Shown here: piece by piece, positions 8,629 to 56,492 of the stretch
How positions within the stretch are numbered: the first letter of the stretch is position 1
Layout: each line of letters opens with the position of its first letter
Origin: a virus
Reading direction: 5' to 3' (one strand)
Virus record (IMG/VR): IMGVR_UViG_3300028563_000014
Location: 1 to 64,000 of that record
DNA: 64,000 nucleotides
Notes under the pieces: generated by a model
Databases searched by the model: none
Told to the model about the DNA's origin: nothing
What the model saw: only the letters and a program-made list of their open reading frames with translations
Program-made: the position numbers and the translations under genes

Positions 8629-10032
8629 TCACGCGCGCTCCATCGCCGACAGGTCGTCCTCGCGCACCACCCGCGTCTCGTACCCGCGGGACCGGTAGGC
8701 CTCCATCCGCAGGCGCGCGTGCGCCTCAAGCCAGCGGTTGCCGACATCGAGGAAGTCCCAATAGCGCACCAGCTCCTTCTCGCCGGCGATCCGCATCAGT
8801 CGGCCGGGCTTCTGGATGGCGTCGATCCGGGAGCGGCCCGCGGCCAGGTTCACCGCGCTCTCGACGAACGGGATGTCGACCCCCTTGTTGAAGATCTTGG
8901 AGACCACCAGCACGTCTGACCGCCCGGTGTTCAGGCGGATCTTCGCCCCGTTGCGCGCGTTGGTGCTGTTCACGCCGGAGATGTACTCGGTGCGCACGCC
9001 CGCGGCCTCGAGGCGCCCCATGAACGCGCGTCCGTGCGGGACGGCCTTCACGAAGGCCAGCGCAGGCCGCGGGCACAGGACCGGAGAGGAAGCGATCCGA
9101 GCGGCGATCCGGTTCCGGTCGGCGTTCAGCACCACCCCCGCCTCATAGACCTCGCTCCAGGACCCGGTCATCCGGTGCTGATGGAACTGGATCATCAGGA
9201 TTTCGATGCGCGCCAGGACCCCGGCGTCGACCAGCTCCTTCACCGGGACGTCCACGATCAGCGGGCCCAGCGCCTCGATCGTCCGGTAGTCGTCCTCGTC
9301 CTCGCGCTCCAACGGGGTGGCCGACAGGCCCACCCTCCAGTAGGCGTTCGGGGTGGCCATGGCCACCTTGTGGCTCTCGCCCGGCGCCAGGACCTGGACC
9401 TCGTCGCACACCAGGCCCTGGGCGCCCTCCAGCAGCTCGTCGACTTCGCCCCCCTCGCCGATGCCGCGTAGCAGCGCCTGGAGGGTCGCCACGGTCACCC
9501 GGCGCGGGTCCTTCTCGCCGTCGCCCCAGAGCCCCGCCCGCTCGCCCGTGCGCAGGAAGATCCGGTCGGCGGCCTGGTGCATCAGGTCTTTCGTGTCGAC
9601 CAGGATCAGCCACCGGACGGGGACGGCCTGGGCCAGGGCGGCAAACAGTTCCGATTTTCCCGATCCTGTTGGCATGGCGACGATCCCGCGCCTCCGCTCA
9701 AGGATTCGCTCCAGGACGGGCGTTTGATACGACCGCAGCCAAGCCCCGGCCGAGGCGTTCAACGTCACCCTGGGCTCGCGGCGGACGTCCTGGAGCTCGA
9801 TCTGGACCCCGGCCTCGCGCGCCCGGCCCACCACCATCCGGACAAGCCCGGCCCCGAACCGCTGGCGCCGCTCGTCCAGGAGCCGAGTGGAGCCGTCCCA
9901 GACGCCGTTCTGGTAGGCGTCCGTGTGCTCCGCCCCCTTCACCGGAACGGTCAGGTACTGGCGGAGCCAGGCCAGATCCTCTGGGGAGGCGTCCTCGACC
10001 CGCGCCCAGAGGTTGTCAGCGATCAGTTTCAA
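8629..10032 (-). CDS. superfamily 2 helicase (UvsW-like)
   Basis: LRSYQ, MPTGSGKS, CDEVQ, GLSATP, GVDIP, IQKPGRLMR; TTG start overlaps the upstream stop. Confidence 0.9.
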   Translation of the reverse strand: MKLIADNLWARVEDASPEDLAWLRQYLTVPVKGAEHTDAYQNGVWDGSTRLLDERRQRFGAGLVRMVVGRAREAGVQIELQDVRREPRVTLNASAGAWLRSYQTPVLERILERRRGIVAMPTGSGKSELFAALAQAVPVRWLILVDTKDLMHQAADRIFLRTGERAGLWGDGEKDPRRVTVATLQALLRGIGEGGEVDELLEGAQGLVCDEVQVLAPGESHKVAMATPNAYWRVGLSATPLEREDEDDYRTIEALGPLIVDVPVKELVDAGVLARIEILMIQFHQHRMTGSWSEVYEAGVVLNADRNRIAARIASSPVLCPRPALAFVKAVPHGRAFMGRLEAAGVRTEYISGVNSTNARNGAKIRLNTGRSDVLVVSKIFNKGVDIPFVESAVNLAAGRSRIDAIQKPGRLMRIAGEKELVRYWDFLDVGNRWLEAHARLRMEAYRSRGYETRVVREDDLSAMERA

Positions 10033-10253
10033 TGGGCCCTTCCCGGCGGCCGCGCGATCTTCCCCCACAGGGAGATGCTGACGGCCACGAACCCGATCGC
10101 GAGCGCGGCGTAGGACGACGCCCGAGACACGTCGTCCCAGCACCAGCAGCCGGCATGCCAATCGTCGACCAGGTCGAGGACGACGTCCACCATGCGGCTC
10201 GCCAGCCCGAACGACGCCAGTAGGATCACCAGCGCCGATACGGCCGGCCTCAT
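10029..10253 (-). CDS. small membrane protein
   Basis: Two hydrophobic segments; overlaps both neighbours. Confidence 0.55.
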   Translation of the reverse strand: MRPAVSALVILLASFGLASRMVDVVLDLVDDWHAGCWCWDDVSRASSYAALAIGFVAVSISLWGKIARPPGRAH

Positions 10254-18178: not shown

Positions 18179-18673
18179 CTACGACCGCGGGGCCGACAAG
18201 ATCGCCGGGTCTGAGATTACGTAGCGGGTTCCCGGCGGCAGCGAACGAACGGAGACGCGCCCCGGCGCGCCGACGCGCTGCACGCCCAGCGGCCCCAGCA
18301 GTGCCATAACGCTCACGTAGGCCGTCTGGAAGTCCTGGAATGCCTCGGCGATCTGCACCTGCGAGAGCGCCTGGGTCCCTTGGCAGATCTTCAGGCCGGC
18401 ATCGTTCGCCACCTGCGCGTCCGAGATGCCGATTTCGATCTTCGCCTGAAGTGCCGGGTTGGGTGCGGTTGCGAAGATCGCCTGCTCGGTGGCCCTCACG
18501 ACGACCAGGGCGACCTGGGCGTCCTTCGCGTACGCCTCGGCCTGCGGCAGGTTGTTGATGACCGGTGCCAGGTGAGCGCACCCGGGGGACATGCCGACGG
18601 CGATCATCGCCACCCCGAGGATCAGCCCGGACAACGTGCAGGCTACACCGCAGATCCGCGCGAGCTTCTTCAT
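18179..18673 (-). CDS. putative lipoprotein
   Basis: Basic N-terminus, hydrophobic stretch, SPGC; own promoter. Confidence 0.6.
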   Translation of the reverse strand: MKKLARICGVACTLSGLILGVAMIAVGMSPGCAHLAPVINNLPQAEAYAKDAQVALVVVRATEQAIFATAPNPALQAKIEIGISDAQVANDAGLKICQGTQALSQVQIAEAFQDFQTAYVSVMALLGPLGVQRVGAPGRVSVRSLPPGTRYVISDPAILSAPRS

Positions 18674-18706
18674 GCGGTCAACTCTGCGCCTGCCCGCGCG
18701 CGACTG

Positions 18707-18937
18707 TCAACCTTGCGGGGCTGCAGCATCCAGCGCGTCGAGCGTCACGGAGATGGCCGTTCGCAGCGACGTCAGCGCGTGCGACAGCGCCGCTACCTGC
18801 TCCGTCAACTCATTTGCGCGCTGGGCCACCAGCGTTACCTCGGCCTTCAGAACGGAAGCGCGGCTGGCGGTCTCTCGGGCTTCTCGCCCCAGGACCACCA
18901 GCCGCTGTCTGATTTCGGAGCGCTGACGCTCCGTCAT
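18707..18937 (-). CDS. small coiled-coil protein
   Basis: 76 aa heptad pattern. Confidence 0.5.
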   Translation of the reverse strand: MTERQRSEIRQRLVVLGREARETASRASVLKAEVTLVAQRANELTEQVAALSHALTSLRTAISVTLDALDAAAPQG

Positions 18938-20340: not shown

Positions 20341-20715
20341 TCAGCCGGCGACTAGGTAGTGCAGCGCGCCCACGCCCGCGACGACCACGGCCGTCATCAC
20401 CGTCATGTCCGACGACCACACCACCTCGCGATCGAACGGGATCGCCTGTGGGGGACCCGCCGCCGTCGTGAAGAATGCCACCATCGGGGCATCGGACTGC
20501 AGCAGCACCAGGCGCGCGCCGGCCCCGACCGGGACGACGAAGGCGTCCACCGGCGGGCCGCCTGACCCGGGTGCCCCGGTGGCGACCGCCGCGTCCCCGG
20601 ACTGGTACGAGTCGACCTCGACCTCTTCGAAGACCTGGTACCGGGAGAGCGTCGTCGTGTTGCCGGCGTAGCCCGGATCGACGACCGCCGCCCCGCGCAT
20701 GCGAACGCGCACCAT
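20341..20715 (-). CDS. small beta-rich structural protein (paralog family A)
   Basis: Similar to 20722-21081 and 54443-54832. Confidence 0.6.
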   Translation of the reverse strand: MVRVRMRGAAVVDPGYAGNTTTLSRYQVFEEVEVDSYQSGDAAVATGAPGSGGPPVDAFVVPVGAGARLVLLQSDAPMVAFFTTAAGPPQAIPFDREVVWSSDMTVMTAVVVAGVGALHYLVAG

Positions 20716-20721
20716 GTCGCG

Positions 20722-21081
20722 TCAGTCCCCCGCCAGGAGGTACTCCAGCACGCCGGTCCCGACGATTCGGATCGTCGAGTACGGCGACCGGTCGGACTCC
20801 AGGAACAGGATCCGGTCGAACGGCACGCGCTGGTCGGCGCCCCCGGCCCCGCTCGACAGCAGCGCCGTCAGCAGGTCGCCCCGGAGCGACTTCAGCAGGA
20901 CGAACTTGATGCTCACGATCGATCCCTGGTCCAGGGTCATCGGCGAGATGTCCGTGCCGGCGACCCCACCGGACCCGCTCCGCTCCGCGCTGTAGGTCTT
21001 CTTCCCGGCCAGGGAGACCGTGGTGGTCAGCCCGCCGCACCCGGAGGGGCTGAGGTTCGCCGTTCCCGCGATCTCGAGCAT
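20722..21081 (-). CDS. small beta-rich structural protein (paralog family A)
   Basis: Ends IVGTGVLEYLLAGD; VPFDR matches IPFDR in its neighbour. Confidence 0.6.
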   Translation of the reverse strand: MLEIAGTANLSPSGCGGLTTTVSLAGKKTYSAERSGSGGVAGTDISPMTLDQGSIVSIKFVLLKSLRGDLLTALLSSGAGGADQRVPFDRILFLESDRSPYSTIRIVGTGVLEYLLAGD

Positions 21082-21109
21082 GGGACGGATGGTACCAGCC
21101 GGCGGCCCG

Positions 21110-23620
21110 TCAGGTCACGATCACGTCTACATCCAGCAGCAGCAGCAGCTGGAACTGCACGCCCTTCGGGCGCTCGATCACCGGGTTCACCTCGACGTCC
21201 ACCCAAGCCGTCCCGTCCCAGATCGCTGGCGGCCGCCGCCACCCGGACCGCAGCAGCACCATGTCGCCCAGGAACGACGCGGGCGGGGGAGGCGGGGGCG
21301 ATACCCCGGCTCCTACGTCCGCCGCGCCAGCGCGACGCCAGGCCGCCCCGAAGGGCGCTCGGATCAGCTCCCCGTCCGGCGGCGGCAGCGCCAGGCCGGC
21401 GGCGGAGACCACCCACCCCACGGCGTCGTAGCGCCCGGAGGCGCGCGCGGCGGCGCGGGCCCGCGCGATCTCTTCCGGCAGCGGAGGGCGCCCGCCGGCC
21501 AGGGAGGCGTCCTCGACCAGCTGGATCACTCGCGGCGGCGCGCGGCGCACCGGCGCCTGCCACGCCTCGTCAGGAAGCGGCGGGTGCGTCGCCCCTGCCC
21601 CCACCACCAGCTCCTCGGTCCGCGCGACCACGCGGCCCGACTGGCGCCGGACCTGCGCCTGCTCGGAGAGCGTCCCCAGCGGGGAGACCGGCGGCGGGGC
21701 GAACGGCTCGCGCTCCGGACGACCACGGGGAACGGGCGGGCGGATCGGCTGCTCGTCGTACCAGGGAGACATCTGCGCCACCACCGGAGGCGCTGCCCAC
21801 GGCTCGCGCTCCGGGCGTCCGCGGGGCACCGTGGTCCGCGGCGCAGTCTCCCAGAACCACGTAGCCGTGAACGCGGGCGGGACGAACACCGACGAATTCC
21901 AGGAATCCGGGACCAGCAGCGCCGCCCAGGCGCGTCGCGCGGGCGGCCGGGGCTCCGTCACCGCGTAGTGCGGCAAGAGGGACGCCAGCGGCGGCGCGGC
22001 GAACGGCTGGTCGACCTGTCGCCGTGAAATGACCAGCGGCGCGCGTAGCACCTGCTCCGGGAGAGCGGACGGTAGCTGAGTGGCGGCGGGCGCGCCGAGC
22101 GCCTCGCCTCCCGGTTGCGCGCGGGGGCGCGGGGGCGCGGGCCGAGCCGGCTGGTCGTTGAGGGCTCCTGGAGCAGGTGCGGCAGCGTCCGCTCCAGGAG
22201 CGCGGGCCCGGATCACAGCGGAGGGCCGAGCCATCACCGGGTCCTCGGCCCACGTCCCGAGCTGCGCGGACGGAGGCGCCGCGAACGGCTCGCGGTCCAA
22301 CCGGCCCCGCGGGATGGCCGGGTGCGGCGGGTTGTCCTCATACCAGGGCGCCAGTTGAGCGACCGGGGGGAGCGCCATCGGCTCCCTCTCCGGGCGCCCG
22401 CGCGGGACGTTGGTTGCGGCCGGCGTCTCCGCGTACCAGGGCGCCAGGGCCCCAACCGGCGGCGCAGCCCAGGCGTCTACCGGGGTGCCGCGCCAGACGC
22501 CCTGGCGCCGCGCCAGCAGCGGGTCTTCGAGCGCGGGGGGCAGGGAGAGCGACGTCGCCAGGGGCGCCGGGGCCCCCTCCTGCGCGACCCTGCGCACCTG
22601 GGGCGCGCGCGGCGGCAGGAACGGGGCATCGCCCAGCGCCGGCAGCGGCGCGCCCAGCGAGGCCTCTCCTGCGCGCTGGCGCGCAGCCACGCGACCCAGC
22701 GCGGCCGGGGACTCGAATCCAAAGCCGGGGACGACCGTCGACCCGGGCGGCAGCTCGAAGACGTGCAGCGGGACCCGAGTCGGGGCGCGCCACGGAGGAA
22801 CGGAGACGACGGGGGGGAGGGCCAAGATCGGAACAGGCAGGAGAGCGGAGACGACGTCGCTGGCTGAGAGCGCCAGGGCGAGCTCGCGCCGCCGTTGCGT
22901 CGCATGGAGCGCGCGCGCGGCCACGAGCAGCGCCGGATCCCTCTCCTCGAACCACGGCAGCAGACTGCCTGACGCGAACGGCGCCGTGCTCGCGATCCGA
23001 ACCGCCGTCGTGTGGCCTGCTAGCGTCCCCGTGTACGTTCCGGCCACGAGGTCCGTGACGGTGGTGTTGCTGTCCGGGGACTCGTCGAAATTCCAATAGG
23101 CGACCAGGCCCGAGGTGCTCGGGTTCATCGTCTGGTTCCAGTTCGCTGCGATCTGCCCGCTGGTGCGGGCGACGTTCCAGAGGCGCACCTCATCGAGCGT
23201 GATATCGGCCGTATTGCCGGCGCTTCCGGACCCTAAATTTGCGAACGCGAAGGTCCCGGAGAACGAATTCAGCGTCGTTGGCGTCCCAGCAACCCCATTG
23301 ATGTAATAGGAAAGCGTCGTTCCGCTGCGAACGATCGCGATGTGGTACCACGTGCTCGCGCTGATCGTCTCAGAGCCGACGATGTAGTTCGTTCCCGTCG
23401 ACCCGAGAAAGAACTGCAGGACGTCCGCGTAGAACTCGATCTCCTGGTAGGTGTTCGAAGGGCCGGCGAGAACGTAGTCCTGGTATCCGCCGCCGCCGCC
23501 GTGAGCTGTTCCTCTCTTGACGAAAAACTCGATCGTGAAATCGCCGGATATCGACGGCGTGGACCCGAGGGCTACGTACTGGCCCTCGGTGTAGTCGAGT
23601 GGGAGTGCCCGGTTCGACAT
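21110..23620 (-). CDS. LamG/concanavalin-like domain followed by long Pro/Arg/Ala-rich repeats
   Basis: FTIEFFVK, TWYHIAIVR, LDEVRLWNVART, GLVAYWNFDE; then ~30-aa PW...PRGRPEREP repeats. Confidence 0.75.
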   Translation of the reverse strand: MSNRALPLDYTEGQYVALGSTPSISGDFTIEFFVKRGTAHGGGGGYQDYVLAGPSNTYQEIEFYADVLQFFLGSTGTNYIVGSETISASTWYHIAIVRSGTTLSYYINGVAGTPTTLNSFSGTFAFANLGSGSAGNTADITLDEVRLWNVARTSGQIAANWNQTMNPSTSGLVAYWNFDESPDSNTTVTDLVAGTYTGTLAGHTTAVRIASTAPFASGSLLPWFEERDPALLVAARALHATQRRRELALALSASDVVSALLPVPILALPPVVSVPPWRAPTRVPLHVFELPPGSTVVPGFGFESPAALGRVAARQRAGEASLGAPLPALGDAPFLPPRAPQVRRVAQEGAPAPLATSLSLPPALEDPLLARRQGVWRGTPVDAWAAPPVGALAPWYAETPAATNVPRGRPEREPMALPPVAQLAPWYEDNPPHPAIPRGRLDREPFAAPPSAQLGTWAEDPVMARPSAVIRARAPGADAAAPAPGALNDQPARPAPPRPRAQPGGEALGAPAATQLPSALPEQVLRAPLVISRRQVDQPFAAPPLASLLPHYAVTEPRPPARRAWAALLVPDSWNSSVFVPPAFTATWFWETAPRTTVPRGRPEREPWAAPPVVAQMSPWYDEQPIRPPVPRGRPEREPFAPPPVSPLGTLSEQAQVRRQSGRVVARTEELVVGAGATHPPLPDEAWQAPVRRAPPRVIQLVEDASLAGGRPPLPEEIARARAAARASGRYDAVGWVVSAAGLALPPPDGELIRAPFGAAWRRAGAADVGAGVSPPPPPPASFLGDMVLLRSGWRRPPAIWDGTAWVDVEVNPVIERPKGVQFQLLLLLDVDVIVT

Positions 23621-23626
23621 GGCTCC

Positions 23627-25414
23627 TCAGAAGCCCCCGTACAAGAACAGGCCCGCGCGCCCGACAGTGATCGTCGGTCCGCCGTTCAGCTGAGCCATCC
23701 CGAACCCAGCGCGCATGTAGTCGTTGATCGCCGCAGCCATCCACTGGGGATGAGGATTATTTCTGGAGACCGTCCGAATCGCGGCCAGGTACCCGGCAGC
23801 ATTCGTGAGCCCAATGCTGGCGGCGTAGCTGTCCAGGTTGCGGGACGGAGCAGGGAACGACGTCGTCGCTGTCGACGGTCCGGCCTCGCTGCTCGCGCCG
23901 AGCCAGTTCGATCCGCCGCTGCTATAGCCGTGGTACGTCGAACCGTCCGTCCAGAAGTGCGACGTCGAGAGAAGCGAGTAGGTGTTCCCCGTGAACGTGA
24001 ACGGCGTGAAGATCGCGCTGTCCACCTCGTAGGCCCCTTGGCCTTGGTCGGGGTCCTGGATGACGTTCGAGAAGATCTTGATGTTCGACCACGTCGGGCG
24101 CGCGGTGACGAGGATGCCCGTGTCGTGCATCCGATAGATCACGTTGTTGTCGATGTTCAGGTTCCCGCTGAACTGCGTGCTAGTGTCGTCGTCGATGGCG
24201 ATCGCGAAGGTCCCATTCGTGTAGCTGTAGTCGGTGAACAGGTTGTGCTCGATCACCGATCCGTTGTTGTTTTTCATCTCGATGCCCCACCCGAGGCTGC
24301 GCCCGGTGGGGTTGCTCTGGTTCGTCTGGCTCAGGACGTTCCACGTGATGCTGCTGTTCGTGATGCACCCTGTCCCGTCGCACGACGATCCGGGCGTGCC
24401 GTTCGCCATGCTGATGCCGACCTCGCCCTGGAAGAAGAAATTATTGTAGGCGACGGTGTTGTTCGTGACCGTGATGTCCGTTCGCCCGTACTGAACGAAT
24501 TTCAGACTCAGCGAGGATGACCTGCCAAAGATATTCCCACGAGCTGTTACGGCCGTGCTGTCCTCGATGTAGACGTGATGGTTGAAGACGTCGGCAGGTT
24601 GGCCGCCGGTCACGTTCCATGCGTTCATATCAAACCAGTTCTCTTCGAAGATGGTCCCAAATGTTCCCGTGCTCGCCGCCGCGATGTACGCCCCTTGCGC
24701 GTGGCCACCGCAGCTTGACGGGTTTCCGTTGTACTGGTCGGTGATGACGTTGCGGCGGATCACGATATCCGTCGGGTGGACGAGGCTGACGTAGGCGATA
24801 TTGATCCCGTCCTCGAAGAAGTGGAACCAGTTGTCCTCGATGAGGAGGTCTGACCCCGCGTCGAAGATCGTGATTCCATTCGTACACGGGGCGGCTCCTC
24901 CCGATCCCCCGCCGGCACCCGCATAGTTGCCGCTCGCCGGGTCCTTGGCCGCGTCATAGAAATCCAACCCGATGATGTAGACGTGGCTCAGCGTCCCCGA
25001 CCCGCCCCGGCTGATGAACGAGCCTACGCTGCTGCTGCTGCTCGTCTGCAGCCGCGGCCTCGTCGTGCTGCCGGTGGAATAGCTCGATATCACGATGGGC
25101 TCGTCTGAGCCGCGACCGTTGAAGTTCGTCGGAAGGCCGAGACCTTCATCCGTCCACGTATCTCCAGCCTTCAGGTACAGGTGGTCAGGCTTGCCGTTGC
25201 GGATGAGCGCCAGCGCGTTCGAGAGGTGGCGCTTCGGAAGCGACGGGCTCAGGCCGCTGTTGCTGTCGCTGCCGCTGGTGCTGACGTAGACGTCGACCGT
25301 GTCGGAAGAGTCGGCCACCAGCGTGTAGCCGTTGCCATCGCGCGTGACGTTGGCAGCCCACGCAGAACTGCTGAGTCCCACGATGGCAACGACGATAGCG
25401 GCGTGAAGCCTCAC
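23627..25414 (-). CDS. right-handed beta-helix protein with signal peptide (depolymerase/adhesin-like)
   Basis: GTG start (GTGA overlap) MRLHAAIVVAIVGLSSSAWA; YVSTSGSDSNSGLSPSLP; repeated IEDN/IRRN/FEEN/ARGN rungs. Confidence 0.8.
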   Translation of the reverse strand: MRLHAAIVVAIVGLSSSAWAANVTRDGNGYTLVADSSDTVDVYVSTSGSDSNSGLSPSLPKRHLSNALALIRNGKPDHLYLKAGDTWTDEGLGLPTNFNGRGSDEPIVISSYSTGSTTRPRLQTSSSSSVGSFISRGGSGTLSHVYIIGLDFYDAAKDPASGNYAGAGGGSGGAAPCTNGITIFDAGSDLLIEDNWFHFFEDGINIAYVSLVHPTDIVIRRNVITDQYNGNPSSCGGHAQGAYIAAASTGTFGTIFEENWFDMNAWNVTGGQPADVFNHHVYIEDSTAVTARGNIFGRSSSLSLKFVQYGRTDITVTNNTVAYNNFFFQGEVGISMANGTPGSSCDGTGCITNSSITWNVLSQTNQSNPTGRSLGWGIEMKNNNGSVIEHNLFTDYSYTNGTFAIAIDDDTSTQFSGNLNIDNNVIYRMHDTGILVTARPTWSNIKIFSNVIQDPDQGQGAYEVDSAIFTPFTFTGNTYSLLSTSHFWTDGSTYHGYSSGGSNWLGASSEAGPSTATTSFPAPSRNLDSYAASIGLTNAAGYLAAIRTVSRNNPHPQWMAAAINDYMRAGFGMAQLNGGPTITVGRAGLFLYGGF

Positions 25415-26340
25415 AGCGCGCACCCGACAACCAGACCGACGCCATGCCTCGCTTGCCACCACCCGGGGACACTCATGTCGATGACTTCGACCGGTCCCGG
25501 TGGGTGCAAACCGGCAAGCACACAAGGGGGAGTAGACCAGCCAAGTGCAAACATGAAAGCATCGTAGTTCGTCGTCCCTCCTCCGTTGGGGTCGGCGTCG
25601 TTATTCGCCAGGATCGCCGAATTGTGAGACGTCGCTTCAGTAGAGCCGAGCGGATTGGACGGGTCATAAAATGCCGCATAGGAAATGTAACTCGGCAATG
25701 TCAACGTGGCGTAGTTGCTGAATAACAGCGCGTTCGATGACCACGTGCTCGAAGTTGAGTCGACGGCTGACGCGGACGTCAACTCAGACGAAACCGTGGC
25801 GGTCAGCGCGCTTCCGTTGCGCCATGCCTTTATTCGAGACGCCGCCGCTTGCCCCGTGTCAACGGCTACCTGCAATCGATTGCGCCCCGCCGCCCATGGG
25901 AATGAGTAGTTCCCATTAGACGAGTAGACCTCCAGCGCCGTCCCGGTTCCCGAGACGAACACCAAGAAGACGTACGCGATATTCACGTTTCCTACCTCTG
26001 CGATGATGTCGAATGACGCCGGCGTGGTGTCATCGAATTCGCACTCGAAGTAGAGCTTCGTTGTGCCGCCGTATGCGGTCTGGAACTTCGTTCCGTTAAG
26101 CGCAGCTGACGTAGCCGTGGCAGCACCGGCAAAATTGTAATAACCACCCCCGCTGTTGCTGCCCCACGCTGAACTCCCGCCCGCAGTGATCGTTGCGGCG
26201 ACCGGTGAAGCAGCGGAGTCACCGATGGTGGTCCCGGTTCCTTCGTTGAATTTATAGAGCGCCAGCGGTGTCGTCGCCGCTGCAGGCGCGGACGCCAGGA
26301 GCATGACCAGCGCGAGTAGGAGTTTCTGCAGCCGGCGCAT
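25411..26340 (-). CDS. LamG-like protein with signal peptide
   Basis: ATG 26340 (TGATG overlap) MRRLQKLLLALVMLLASAPAAA; ALYKFNEGTGTTIGDS. Confidence 0.75.
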   Translation of the reverse strand: MRRLQKLLLALVMLLASAPAAATTPLALYKFNEGTGTTIGDSAASPVAATITAGGSSAWGSNSGGGYYNFAGAATATSAALNGTKFQTAYGGTTKLYFECEFDDTTPASFDIIAEVGNVNIAYVFLVFVSGTGTALEVYSSNGNYSFPWAAGRNRLQVAVDTGQAAASRIKAWRNGSALTATVSSELTSASAVDSTSSTWSSNALLFSNYATLTLPSYISYAAFYDPSNPLGSTEATSHNSAILANNDADPNGGGTTNYDAFMFALGWSTPPCVLAGLHPPGPVEVIDMSVPGWWQARHGVGLVVGCAL

Positions 26341-28631: not shown

Positions 28632-28678
28632 GCGTCCGAGGATGCGTCCCCGGCGCCTTGCGCGTCAATCTTCGAGGG

Positions 28679-47255: not shown

Positions 47256-47309
47256 CTAGGCGGCCCTCACCTTCATGCGGACCATGCTGCGGCCGCGCGT
47301 GCCCGGAGG

Positions 47310-47969
47310 TCAAGAATCGGTGGGACGCGGGATCGGGCCCTCGCAGACCTTCATGACCGTCTTCAGCGTGAACGGCGCCACCGGCCCCAGCATCACGTGC
47401 TTCGCCTCAGCCCGGACGACGAACGTCGCCTCGTTCTGGTTCCGCGCGGCCGTGTCCTGGTCGTCGTGCTTCTGGCTGGACAGGAACGTCAGCCGGCACG
47501 GGATACCGAAGTACCCGGGCATTGGGACGAAGACGCCGTTGCGCGCCCCCCGGCGCCACATGAGCAGGCGCGGGTCCTGGAACGTCGTCTCGATGCCCGC
47601 CAGCAGCGCCTGGCGCTCCGCGGACGTCGGCGCTCGGACCACCACCTCGACGTCCCTGGTGGCCTCCTGGAGCTCGTAGAGCCCGAACCCGAGCTGCCCC
47701 TGCGGCTCCCAGGTCTCCTCGAGCAGCCGCGGGGTCGGGTGGGACGGCCCGTAGACCAGGGGCGGGTCCGGCAGGATGCACCCGGAGGGCCGCTCGAACT
47801 CGTCGTTGAACGTCGGCCAGTCCGTGAACACCCGCTTCAGCTGGATCGTCCCCTGCCCGCCCGGGCCCGGCCAAGCGCAGGCGGTCAGCCGATCGGCGAT
47901 GGCCTGGGACATGGCCGTCGTCAGGTCGACGGTCTGCTTCCGGCTGTAGTCCTCGCGGCTGAACGCCAT
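47310..47969 (-). CDS. tail terminator/completion protein
   Basis: Synteny, directly upstream of sheath. Confidence 0.55.
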   Translation of the reverse strand: MAFSREDYSRKQTVDLTTAMSQAIADRLTACAWPGPGGQGTIQLKRVFTDWPTFNDEFERPSGCILPDPPLVYGPSHPTPRLLEETWEPQGQLGFGLYELQEATRDVEVVVRAPTSAERQALLAGIETTFQDPRLLMWRRGARNGVFVPMPGYFGIPCRLTFLSSQKHDDQDTAARNQNEATFVVRAEAKHVMLGPVAPFTLKTVMKVCEGPIPRPTDS

Positions 47970-50468: not shown

Positions 50469-50671
50469 AAAAAAACCGCAGGCTGCAGCGAGAGAAATGG
50501 GAGCACAGGACCGAAGTCCCAGCCCCCCCGGCCAATACGTGGGCCGTACACGAGGTCTCGCTGCCGACCCGCGGATCCCGACGGCTCACCGGTTGAGGCC
50601 GAAGCCTGCCGTTTCTCGCCGTCAGGAAATCCCGGGCACCGCACCGCGCGGCGCCTCTTGTTCTCGTTCAC
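50469..50671 (-). ncRNA. candidate ~200-nt structured RNA
   Basis: Own promoter 50679-50708, two C(UUCG)G hairpins, long-range stems, ends in U7. Confidence 0.6.
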
Positions 50672-50798
50672 GCCTCTCAGCTTGCAGCCGGGCGGCCCCG
50701 CCGGTCAAGGGGGCCAGTCCTCGAGGTCCAGCCGGCACCTGGTGCAGCAGCGCAGAAGAGGCGGCAGCAGCACCAGGCACCGGAAGCAACTGGACAGG

Positions 50799-51290
50799 CT
50801 AGGGCGTGGTCGACGGCGCGCCCGAGGCGGCGGGCGTCGCGCTGGTATCGCTGGTGGGGGCCGTGGTCCCGGTGCTGGCGGGCGGGGCGGCGGGGGTGTT
50901 CGCCACGACCGCGGTCGTCAGGTCCGACTTCTTGGCTGCCAGCGCGGCGGAAGCGGCCTTGATCTTCGCGCCCAGCGCTTGGATCGTCGCGCTGTCGGCG
51001 CCGGCAGCGGCGGTCACCTCGGAACCCGCGCTGTCCAGCAGCGCGACGGCGGCGTCGATGGTGGTGCTCAGACCCTCTTCCGCAGAGGTCAGGTCGGTGA
51101 CCTCCGCGGTAAGGGTGTCGAGATCCTGGGTTACCTGGTCGAGTGCGTTGGACATGGCGGCTTCTCCCTTTGCGATCGGTTCGAGCAGCGCCAGGGCCCG
51201 CCGCATCATCGCGGCCAGGTCGTCTACCTTGCGCTCGATCCGCTGCATCCTCGAAGGCATCTCCAGCGCGAGGTCGACGGCGTTGCTCAT
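50799..51290 (-). CDS. coiled-coil protein with a possible second in-frame start at 51155
   Basis: Heptads; promoter-defined ATG 51290 and SD-led ATG 51155. Confidence 0.6.
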   Translation of the reverse strand: MSNAVDLALEMPSRMQRIERKVDDLAAMMRRALALLEPIAKGEAAMSNALDQVTQDLDTLTAEVTDLTSAEEGLSTTIDAAVALLDSAGSEVTAAAGADSATIQALGAKIKAASAALAAKKSDLTTAVVANTPAAPPASTGTTAPTSDTSATPAASGAPSTTP

Positions 51291-51330
51291 GCCGCCGACG
51301 ATGCGGCGACGGGGACAGCGGCGTCAAGCG

Positions 51331-55595: not shown

Positions 55596-56021
55596 TCAGT
55601 CGTCCTTCTTCTCGTCTCCGCCACCGTCCTCGTCGTCTTCCTCGTCCTCGTCGTCGCCCGGTTTTTCGTCGGGCTCGTCGTCTTCGTGGGCCTCTTCGAT
55701 CTCGTCGGCCAGGTCGTTCACTTCGGAGACCAGGTCGTCCGCCATCGACAGGACGTTCTTGAACGCCTTCTTCGTGGCCTTGTCCTCGTCGCCCATCTCC
55801 TCGCCGCGCAGGTCCTTGAAGGCATCCTGGACGGTGGTCGCGGCCTCGCGGATCCGGCCCCAGAGATTGCTGGGGGCCTCGTCGCCGCCGGTCCCCTCGT
55901 CGTCGTCCGGATCGACCTCCTTGCCGCCCGTGCCGCCGCCAGCGTCCCCGCCGTCATCGGCGCCGCCATTGCTGCCCTTCGCCCAGTTGCGCAGATCGTT
56001 CTGGTCGGCGTCGTTTCCCAT
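55596..56021 (-). CDS. highly acidic protein
   Basis: Asp/Glu-rich 141 aa; own promoter. Confidence 0.65.
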   Translation of the reverse strand: MGNDADQNDLRNWAKGSNGGADDGGDAGGGTGGKEVDPDDDEGTGGDEAPSNLWGRIREAATTVQDAFKDLRGEEMGDEDKATKKAFKNVLSMADDLVSEVNDLADEIEEAHEDDEPDEKPGDDEDEEDDEDGGGDEKKDD

Positions 56022-56071
56022 GGCGCCGATGATGCGCGGCGCGCGCGGCGGGTGTCAAGAACGCCCGGGGA

Positions 56072-56350
56072 CTAGGACCAGGTCGAGATCTCGACCGTGG
56101 CCGGACCGCCGCTGACGGCGCGCAGCCAGATCTTCTGGATCGTCATGCTCTCGAAGCGGCGCGAGGACGCCTTCAGGTTCGCGCTGTCGAGGCGCCCGTG
56201 CTCGTTCTTGCCGTCGTAGGAGAAGGCGACCACGGACGCGGTCGAGACGTAGATCTCGAGGTTCTTCATCACCGCGCCCGCGTCGTAGTCGGGCAACGTG
56301 TTGTACGTCGTCGTCGCCGTGGTCGCTACCGATGCCGCGCTGGCTGCCAT
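56072..56350 (-). CDS. small beta-rich protein
   Basis: 92 aa; own promoter. Confidence 0.6.
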   Translation of the reverse strand: MAASAASVATTATTTYNTLPDYDAGAVMKNLEIYVSTASVVAFSYDGKNEHGRLDSANLKASSRRFESMTIQKIWLRAVSGGPATVEISTWS

Positions 56351-56492
56351 GCCGGAGAGCCTACGCGCCGGCAGAGCCGCGGGTCAATTCGAGCGGCGAG
56401 CAGACCCCCGCCAGCCTGTGCACCTCGCGGTGCGCGCCGGCACGCCCTGAAGCGTGAAGCTCGGCAGCGGGAGCCAACCGCTGACGAAGCTA

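Follow-up and report, generated by a model that had tools for sequence, protein, structure and literature searches.

We describe here three consecutive phage genes, A, B and C, each of which begins with what looks like a Sec export signal. They lie in a stretch of 64,000 nucleotides (nt), hereafter the window, which comprises bases 1-64000 of the 87,462-base IMG/VR virus record IMGVR_UViG_3300028563_000014, rated 100% complete. The source is an uncultured soil-type phage, the G+C content of the window is about 69%, and all recognisable genes of the window are carried on the minus strand. Among them are portal, Mu-F-like, tape-measure and baseplate-J genes, together with RecA/UvsX-, gp32-, DnaB- and UvsW-like replication genes; the phage is myovirus-like and lytic, and the searches made, in which not every open reading frame (ORF) was scanned, found no lysogeny genes in the window. 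The three genes and their leaders are laid out as follows, with a slash marking each predicted cut.

26340-28631, minus strand: gene A, 763 amino acids, ATG start; fibre-like mosaic protein with a leader
25411-26340, minus strand: gene B, 309 amino acids, ATG start; leader and LamG-like body
23627-25414, minus strand: gene C, 595 amino acids, GTG start; leader and right-handed beta-helix
28566-28631, minus strand: leader of A, residues 1-22, MKRLAVAVLVAAVLLVPRASRA/QLARIK, predicted cut after ASRA
26275-26340, minus strand: leader of B, MRRLQKLLLALVMLLASAPAAA/TTPLAL
25355-25414, minus strand: leader of C, (M)RLHAAIVVAIVGLSSSAWA/ANVTRD
28639-28668, minus strand: promoter-like site, TTGACG, 18 nt, CATCCT; ends 7 nt before the ATG of A
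18671-18710, 28629-28668, 47274-47313, 50669-50708, 51288-51327, 56019-56058 and 56348-56387, minus strand: seven promoter-like sites, the spacer always 18 nt long

The three genes are tightly packed: the stop codon of A and the ATG of B have 1 nt in common, and B and C overlap by 4 nt, in a GTGA formed by the B stop and the C GTG. An earlier note on this DNA had proposed three overlapping genes behind their own promoter, all starting with basic-hydrophobic-AxA leaders, and the coordinates, the overlaps and the anatomy of the leaders all agree with it, the promoter being represented by a promoter-like site. A strict sigma-70 scan of 20500-29800 returned 0 sites. The pattern TTGAC-N20-A-N3-T-N7-RTG, on the other hand, occurs 7 times in the window, always on the minus strand, against 0.05 occurrences expected, a count reached by 0 of 100 shuffles. 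At all seven sites a start codon stands 7 nt past the -10 element, which suggests that they give rise to late mRNAs that are leaderless in the transcript sense; for the site at A, the arrangement implies a leaderless or near-leaderless mRNA. Since this site is of the same type as those ahead of head and tail genes, the cassette is probably expressed late. Moreover, because the ATG of A lies 7 nt from a recurrent promoter-like site, translation would start upstream of the leader, which thus falls inside the A reading frame.

In all three proteins the leader shows the anatomy of a signal peptide. The n-region is positively charged (MKR in A, MRRLQK in B, (M)R in C; net charge at least +1 in each), the uncharged h-region spans 13, 14 and 12 residues in A, B and C, respectively, with a mean Kyte-Doolittle hydropathy of at least 1.9, and small residues occupy positions -3 and -1 (SRA/Q in A, AAA/T in B, AWA/A in C). 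Scored with a home-made heuristic for n-, h- and c-regions, not a trained predictor, the leaders reached 43.4 (A), 33.7 (B) and 31.0 (C); B was scored apart from the genome-wide leader scan, where a filter on G+C content at third codon positions (GC3) had dropped it. Over the whole 87-kb genome, the only other gene starts in the same score range are those of two small membrane-type ORFs (18179-18673 and 10029-10253) and of a 911-residue protein, P0148. The two neighbouring fibres start MGYVFTKGEK (29796-30986) and MAFESVQIQT (30990-33311), and neither has a leader by start sequence or by heuristic, as had been noted before.

Comparison with relatives places the predicted cut sites of A, B and C at the starts of conserved mature domains. 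In A, the domain conserved with P0036 starts directly after the leader; in C, as in P0004 and P0005, the cut site is where the conserved ANVTRD.NGWT begins. Many leaderless relatives of B start M-ATPLLLY, which is the predicted mature end of B, so that the leader appears as a separate module set ahead of a domain that elsewhere starts cytoplasmic proteins. Leaders are also frequent among the closest kin. A has 272 relatives at E ≤ 1e-3; the seven closest (P0029-P0033, P0036 and P0038) all carry leaders, the heuristic flagged 18 of the 119 listed relatives (15 of these were judged convincing), and the rest are ordinary leaderless fibres. A profile search with B collected 651 proteins at E ≤ 1e-3, with a leader-bearing look in 37 of the 148 listed representatives. 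For C, 12 of 24 relatives were flagged as of signal peptidase I (SPI) or lipoprotein type, and at least three others start inside the mature part. On this evidence, export of A, B and C from the cytoplasm is quite probable.

P0148 (67628-70363, minus strand, past the window; L106:1629-4364) deserves a description of its own. Its 911 residues begin with a lipoprotein-type start (MKRIVVLLGCLVIASC) with the lipobox LVIASC, continue with a Laminin_G_3 domain (E 3.7e-19), a long Gly/Ser linker and weak Big_7 and beta-helix matches, and end DLFGTFGP. It would be a second exported-looking LamG and beta-helix protein of the same phage.

The trio is not confined to this genome. L002/L003 and L084 each have a leader-bearing A-B-C set whose gene order and 1-4 nt overlaps are those of the window; their backbones differ from that of the window phage, and the leaders differ in sequence between the three. 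In L002/L003 the trio lies after a capsid-like gene and before a leaderless gene of 1000 amino acids; the core tail genes and main fibres of both the window phage and L002 are without leaders. With its own promoter-like site, and with its occurrence in unrelated backbones whose core tails are leaderless, the cassette has the look of a mobile add-on. Codon usage sets one member apart: GC3 is 0.69 in B, 0.868 in A and 0.841 in C, and 18 other genes of the phage have a mean of 0.906 (standard deviation 0.045, minimum 0.838). B may be a recent import.

Gene A encodes a mosaic, in which four parts can be told apart after the leader.

28047-28565, minus strand: N-terminal domain of A, residues 23-195, lineage-specific
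27084-28046, minus strand: poly-Gly stretch and shaft modules, residues 196-516, including the Cys314/Cys328 pair
26781-27083, minus strand: beta-sandwich domain 1, residues 517-617, holding Cys566 and Cys601; the best conserved part
26367-26672, minus strand: beta-sandwich domain 2, residues 654-755; variable distal tip

No Pfam or PHROG family matched A, and tblastn against 50,697 phage records gave one weak match, to a 'putative tail fiber' over residues 633-759 (E 4e-4). Residues 23-195 are 7-26% identical to the relatives in the other trios and 42% identical to P0036; about residues 25-132 look like an Ig/PKD-type sandwich, for which protein atlas feature scores of 0.77 and structure template-modelling (TM) scores of 0.41-0.50 are leads only. 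The shaft modules are common to more than 100 fibre-like proteins, ordinary leaderless tail fibres included. Further on, P0029, P0032 and P0033 have 78-81% identity to A over residues 505-622, and P0029-P0033 have 21-56% over residues 651-763. A structure model, which covers residues 480-763, consists of two beta-sandwiches predicted with a mean local distance difference test score (pLDDT) of about 90; the two tandem Q(D/N)xTG..WP..W domains that had been read from the sequence are thus borne out, at about 517-617 and 654-755.

A fold search of these domains against 48,161 representative chains returned only 7 chains at Z ≥ 5, the next row standing at 3.5, with single-domain matches at a root-mean-square deviation of 3.1-3.6 over 90-96 residues. 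The matches are the Solidus gp83 tailspike (Z 6.5), the KP1 baseplate (6.2), the Pa223 capsid spike (6.2), residues 78-180 of CBA120 TSP4 (two entries, at 5.7-5.8), CpaA (5.6) and StcE (5.4), with T4 gp9 at 5.5 in a second look; values of Z below 8 may mean a mere common arrangement. Domain 1 is XD1-like (Z 6.2), and domain 2 has Z 6.5 to Solidus gp83 and 5.7-6.1 to TSP4 residues 78-180. Set off by a gap from the rows that follow, and mostly of phage origin, the matches make an XD1-type fold a fair reading of the modelled domains. In the excerpts available of the study of this fold, gp9, gp10, CpaA and StcE are neighbours of the XD1 domain of TSP4, the function of XD1 is described as not understood and partner binding is assigned to XD2 and XD3; its Table 2 gives PDB 6o38 as CpaA of A. 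baumannii (PMC8825819). The reading of A as a stem whose two adaptor domains each take a partner gains no support from this comparison, since the tandem domains match the XD1/gp9/StcE/CpaA set and not the partner-binding XD2 and XD3. An anchor common to A and the resident fibre was considered and rejected: BLASTP against the 773-residue fibre at 30990-33311 gave a best E of 1.2, and the N-terminal domain of A matches only itself among the ORFs of the genome.

Gene B is the smallest of the three and has the following parts behind its leader.

Within 25411-26340, minus strand: LamG-like body of B, ending in ANNDADPN (25585-25608)
25537-25566, minus strand: hydrophobic motif of B, YDAFMFALGW, after ANNDADPN
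End of gene B, minus strand: tail with Cys273 and Cys307, ending GCAL

The product of B (P0002) matched no Pfam family at E ≤ 0.1 and no PHROG family. In the protein atlas, its ten best family-carrying feature matches all belong to Laminin_G_3 or its clan (0.95-0.96), and structure rows reach TM scores of 0.56-0.63, both of which we take as leads. The LamG-like character claimed for B thus stands on the atlas side, with Laminin_G_3 clusters at 0.96, but no curated Pfam profile matches it. An hhalign comparison of the B profile with the Laminin_G_3 protein D, encoded next to C, gave a probability of 1.9, and kinship of B and D is not shown, though both look LamG-like. A tail with two cysteines and a GC(A/S)L end is found in six representatives of the B family.

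The beta-helix of C, equally proposed before, is borne out by model and structure search.

About 23975-25354, minus strand: right-handed beta-helix of C, from model and Foldseek
23705-23914, minus strand: helical end domain of C
23630-23662, minus strand: C-terminal tail of C, GRAGLFLYGGF

The model of C (pLDDT 78.5, predicted TM score 0.85) has 75 PDB matches in Foldseek at E ≤ 0.001. Its structural neighbours are polysaccharide hydrolases and lyases, namely GH136 (E 1.4e-8), PL6 chondroitinase B, GH87, PL9 and RbmB, solved enzymes that are 9-14% identical to C in sequence. C itself matched no Pfam or PHROG family, and tblastn against the 50,697 phage records found no match; PF13229 is present on its relatives. 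Those relatives, 37-48% identical to C, come from bacteria and carry signals of SPI or lipoprotein type. One C relative was found in the genome collection, L108:7560-9680, from a deltaproteobacterial metagenome-assembled genome, where a protein with the lipobox LAGAGC, a PKD domain and a beta-helix is encoded among GT4, GT4 and GT2 glycosyltransferase genes. The alignment of the C family contains invariant Asp, Arg, His and Asn columns. A variant occurs in L107:4817-6997, a phage beta-helix gene of the L002 type. Its product has a leader and, at the C-terminal end, a membrane helix followed by about 60 cytoplasmic residues, and would be a type I membrane-anchored version of C. A membrane helix and cytoplasmic tail replace the tail of C in P0004, P0005 and P0008 as well.

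Cysteines accompany the leaders. A has 7, B 3 and C 4, in line with the several cysteines noted earlier for A and C. Among the relatives of A, with 3 doubtful rows left out, the median cysteine content is 0.90% in leader-bearing proteins (n=15) versus 0.21% in leaderless ones (n=101; Mann-Whitney p = 1.3e-4). The VCQD...ACD pair of the internal sandwich of A is kept in the aligned leader-bearing relatives, and all 9 aligned sequences of the C family have both C345 and C350.

The similar short hydrophobic motifs near the ends of B and C are likewise real and recur in relatives. The tail reads PRALFMYGPGF in the C of L002 and GRAYLFLSGGGF in that of L084, and the window C is only 19% identical to that of L002; the aligned cellular relatives of C do not have a tail of the GRAGLFLYGGF type. 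The end-motif pattern stands at the end of 8 of the 148 B-family representatives (2 with leaders and 6 leaderless), in 0 of 119 relatives of A, in 0 of 24 relatives of C and in 1 of 503 ORFs of the phage, that one being C. The motif is specific, and may be a docking tag or the remnant of a membrane anchor. A complex prediction with the tip of A, mature B and residues 496-595 of C scored 0.00 against a mark of 0.32, with controls not run, and gives no answer either way.

How might these parts work together? The account we put first, and hold only tentatively, is that A, B and C are an accessory module which is exported and, late in infection, attaches to the polysaccharide of the host surface and cuts it. 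Given the gene overlaps and the promoter-like site, they would be made from one late transcript of the leaderless type and translated as a coupled unit. Signal peptidase I would cut the leaders at ASRA/Q, AAA/T and AWA/A, as leader anatomy and conserved-domain starts suggest, and the proteins would leave the cytoplasm via the Sec pathway and fold with disulfides in an oxidising periplasm or envelope, with which their paired and invariant cysteines are consistent. There C, by fold and gene context a relative of exopolysaccharide-locus lipoproteins, may cut or modify the polysaccharide at the host surface, and B, through its LamG-type lectin domain, and A, as a fibre with a variable tip, may bind that polysaccharide or the envelope. 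The virion's leaderless fibres (29796-33311) would meanwhile be made in the cytoplasm as usual. The benefit we propose is that the polysaccharide coat of the infected cell would be stripped or opened before and at lysis, so that progeny get away instead of being lost on debris; the infected cell would also be rid of any receptor that the coat contains. We favour an envelope-acting module because C is akin to enzymes of exopolysaccharide loci, because the cassette is an add-on, because the GC3 of B is deviant and because of P0148. The earlier note had supposed that the module is exported and then either docks on virions at lysis or acts as a secreted adhesin, decoy or depolymerase. Its export part is backed by comparison, through leaders, domain starts, relatives of C and cysteines; no such backing was obtained for the adaptor domains for two partners or for docking on virions, and a secreted adhesin, decoy or depolymerase fits the evidence at least as well as docking.

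Several observations weigh against this account. The leader calls rest on the home-made heuristic and on our reading of the sequences, and Sec alone would lead to the periplasm in a diderm host, no further secretion signal having been found. No catalytic residues were identified in C. The domain pattern of A, with a lineage-specific N-terminal domain, a conserved middle and a variable tip, resembles that of receptor-binding proteins. In L084 two leaderless proteins encoded upstream have C-terminal ends similar to the N-terminal domain of the exported fibre (L084:3-2195, E 8e-5; L084:1997-2620, E 5e-6; small database). The end motif of B and C also occurs on the six leaderless relatives of B and therefore is not tied to export, which would suit a docking tag on virion parts. 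Finally, in L116 a leaderless fibre is followed by a leaderless B-type gene, so the cassette would descend from ordinary virion parts.

A separate phage shows a similar resemblance, of the C-terminal end of a leaderless upstream protein (L004:7748-8644) to the N-terminal domain of that phage's exported fibre (E 0.02, again in a small database).

The last four of the points raised against the first account speak for a second explanation, in which the cassette is destined for the virion as a branched fibre: A, B and C would be exported, fold in the periplasm and join the finished leaderless virions when lysis mixes the compartments, A being anchored to the tail by its N-terminal domain and B and C hanging on A through their hydrophobic end motifs. 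The cassette does sit in the fibre region of three backbones, the tail of C is kept despite the low identity of the window and L002 proteins, and the design in which a short docking peptide attaches to a branching domain is proven for Klebsiella podophages (PMC13352976) and CBA120 (PMC8825819). Nonetheless, we regard this explanation as unlikely, given that the tandem domains of A match XD1 and not the partner-binding XD2 and XD3, that A is unmatched to the 773-residue main fibre and its N-terminal domain has no relative among the ORFs of the genome, that the phage already has two leaderless fibres and that no tailed phage is known, in the literature searched or otherwise, to add exported parts. 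In its full form, the cassette would belong to the infectious particle itself: a branched fibre with disulfide bonds, made in the periplasm, would snap onto cytoplasm-built virions only at lysis and be portable between myovirus-like and podovirus-like backbones. We think this form unlikely as well.

A third explanation makes the cassette a device for exclusion or for altering the host. The fibre and the lectin would mask a receptor or the envelope and the enzyme would remove the receptor polysaccharide, the main effect being to block superinfecting phages or to change adhesion between cells. It draws on the same export evidence as the exported module that binds and cuts surface polysaccharide, and the variability of the tip of A would suit a ligand that differs from host to host; a metagenome study proposes that viral beta-helix proteins of NosD type, of which one bears a signal peptide, have roles in adhesion (PMC13452462). 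With expression probably late, however, exclusion would have little time to matter, the ORFs of the window that were scanned include no lysogeny genes, and no result obtained here separates exclusion from the polysaccharide-directed module; we consider it quite unlikely as the main role.

That the leaders do not serve export at all, A, B and C being ordinary cytoplasmic virion parts whose hydrophobic N-termini act in assembly or are removed by a phage protease, is very unlikely: relatives without leaders do outnumber the others (101 of 119 for A, 111 of 148 for B), and signal-like peptides on capsid proteins of Porphyromonas phage are interpreted as prohead protease substrates in the excerpts available of PMC10367356, yet all three leaders combine a positive n-region, an h-region of 10-14 residues and small -3/-1 residues, they hold their position while diverging in sequence across three backbones, lipoprotein or SPI signals are found on the cellular relatives of C, and cysteine enrichment accompanies the leaders.

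The surroundings of the cassette add some further observations.

21110-23620, minus strand: neighbour D, 836 amino acids, leaderless; Laminin_G_3 (Pfam E 3.9e-16) and Pro-rich, Trp-containing repeats
28679-29089, minus strand: ORF of 136 amino acids directly upstream of A; weak Tad2-like match
29110 to about 29760, minus strand: ORF between the fibre genes and the Tad2-like ORF

D is the next gene after C, in the same direction, and matches PHROG baseplate and virion families; that it is a member of the cassette is not shown. Pro-rich Trp repeats are seen in leaderless LamG proteins of two phages, as PRGRPEREP and APWY in D and as PPWGWPRR in L107:7001-8359, and in both the window phage and L107 such a gene directly follows the beta-helix gene. 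The 136-residue ORF upstream of A has a Pfam match of Tad2 type (Thoeris anti-defence, DUF2829) at E 0.013 and 16.4 bits, under the 25-bit cut-off. The ORF between it and the fibre genes matched neither Pfam nor PHROG families; in its longest reading it extends over the end of the fibre gene at 29796-30986.

Textbook morphogenesis of tailed phages is cytoplasmic. A conserved, mobile cassette with export signals would mean either that phages work on the envelope of the host from inside, ahead of lysis, through unrecognised release or receptor-destroying factors, or that some virion appendages mature outside the cytoplasm; if docking were true, a tailed phage would have a two-compartment assembly line. 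Either option affects the annotation of genes in fibre regions and the prediction of host range from such genes, and bears on where stable, disulfide-bonded polysaccharide-degrading enzymes should be sought. The three genes offer a compact, testable system. In the literature searched, which did not include supplements and any tables of signal peptides in them, we found no paper on Sec signals of tailed-phage fibres or depolymerases as a module, or on a cassette of this kind.

Among known systems, the branched receptor-binding protein (RBP) complexes come closest in gene layout, a fibre or spike gene being followed by binding or enzyme genes (CBA120 TSP1-4 and T4 gp10, PMC8825819; KP32-type RBP1/RBP2, PMC13352976; both as excerpted). 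Like them, the cassette combines gp9/XD1-type sandwiches in A (Z 5.4-6.5) with partner genes that carry short conserved peptides. Unlike them, it has its conserved peptide at the C-terminus, and XD1 is the domain matched. The docking peptide of KP32-type RBP2 is N-terminal. The known branched systems differ further by cytoplasmic assembly, by partner-binding domains XD2 and XD3 and by having no signal peptides. The matches of the A model, which covers residues 480-763, are to the XD1 set, and we do not count the cassette as a member of this family, whose defining features it does not demonstrably have.

For C, the closest likeness is to the exported beta-helix enzymes of exopolysaccharide systems, such as PL6 chondroitinase B, alginate lyases, GH136, GH87 and V. 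cholerae RbmB, which have the same fold. As in those systems, the cellular relatives of C have lipoprotein or signal-peptide N-termini and lie among glycosyltransferase genes; unlike those enzymes, the phage copies of C have an additional hydrophobic tail at the C-terminus, replaced in L107 by a membrane anchor. The tailspike and free depolymerases of phages are likewise beta-helix enzymes encoded beside fibres, and polysaccharide of the host surface is their probable target. To our knowledge, those described are leaderless and either bound to the virion or freed only by lysis, and in the literature searched no depolymerase of a phage was said to have a functional Sec signal.

The closest in design are the mosaic adhesive trimer (MAT) fibres of Bdellovibrio bacteriovorus, phage-fibre-like adhesins that are exported by Sec and act outside the cytoplasm (Caulton et al. 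2024, PMC10769870, as excerpted). Their layout agrees with that of A, with a signal peptide, a beta-rich N-terminal domain of about 130 residues and then a fibre, trimeric in MAT, the likeness being one of layout. According to the same excerpts, MAT genes are those of a cellular predator, and 13 of 21 end in an S74 protease-chaperone domain (PMC10769870). A, unlike MAT, belongs to no Pfam family, is encoded by a phage and is coupled to a lectin-like and a beta-helix gene.

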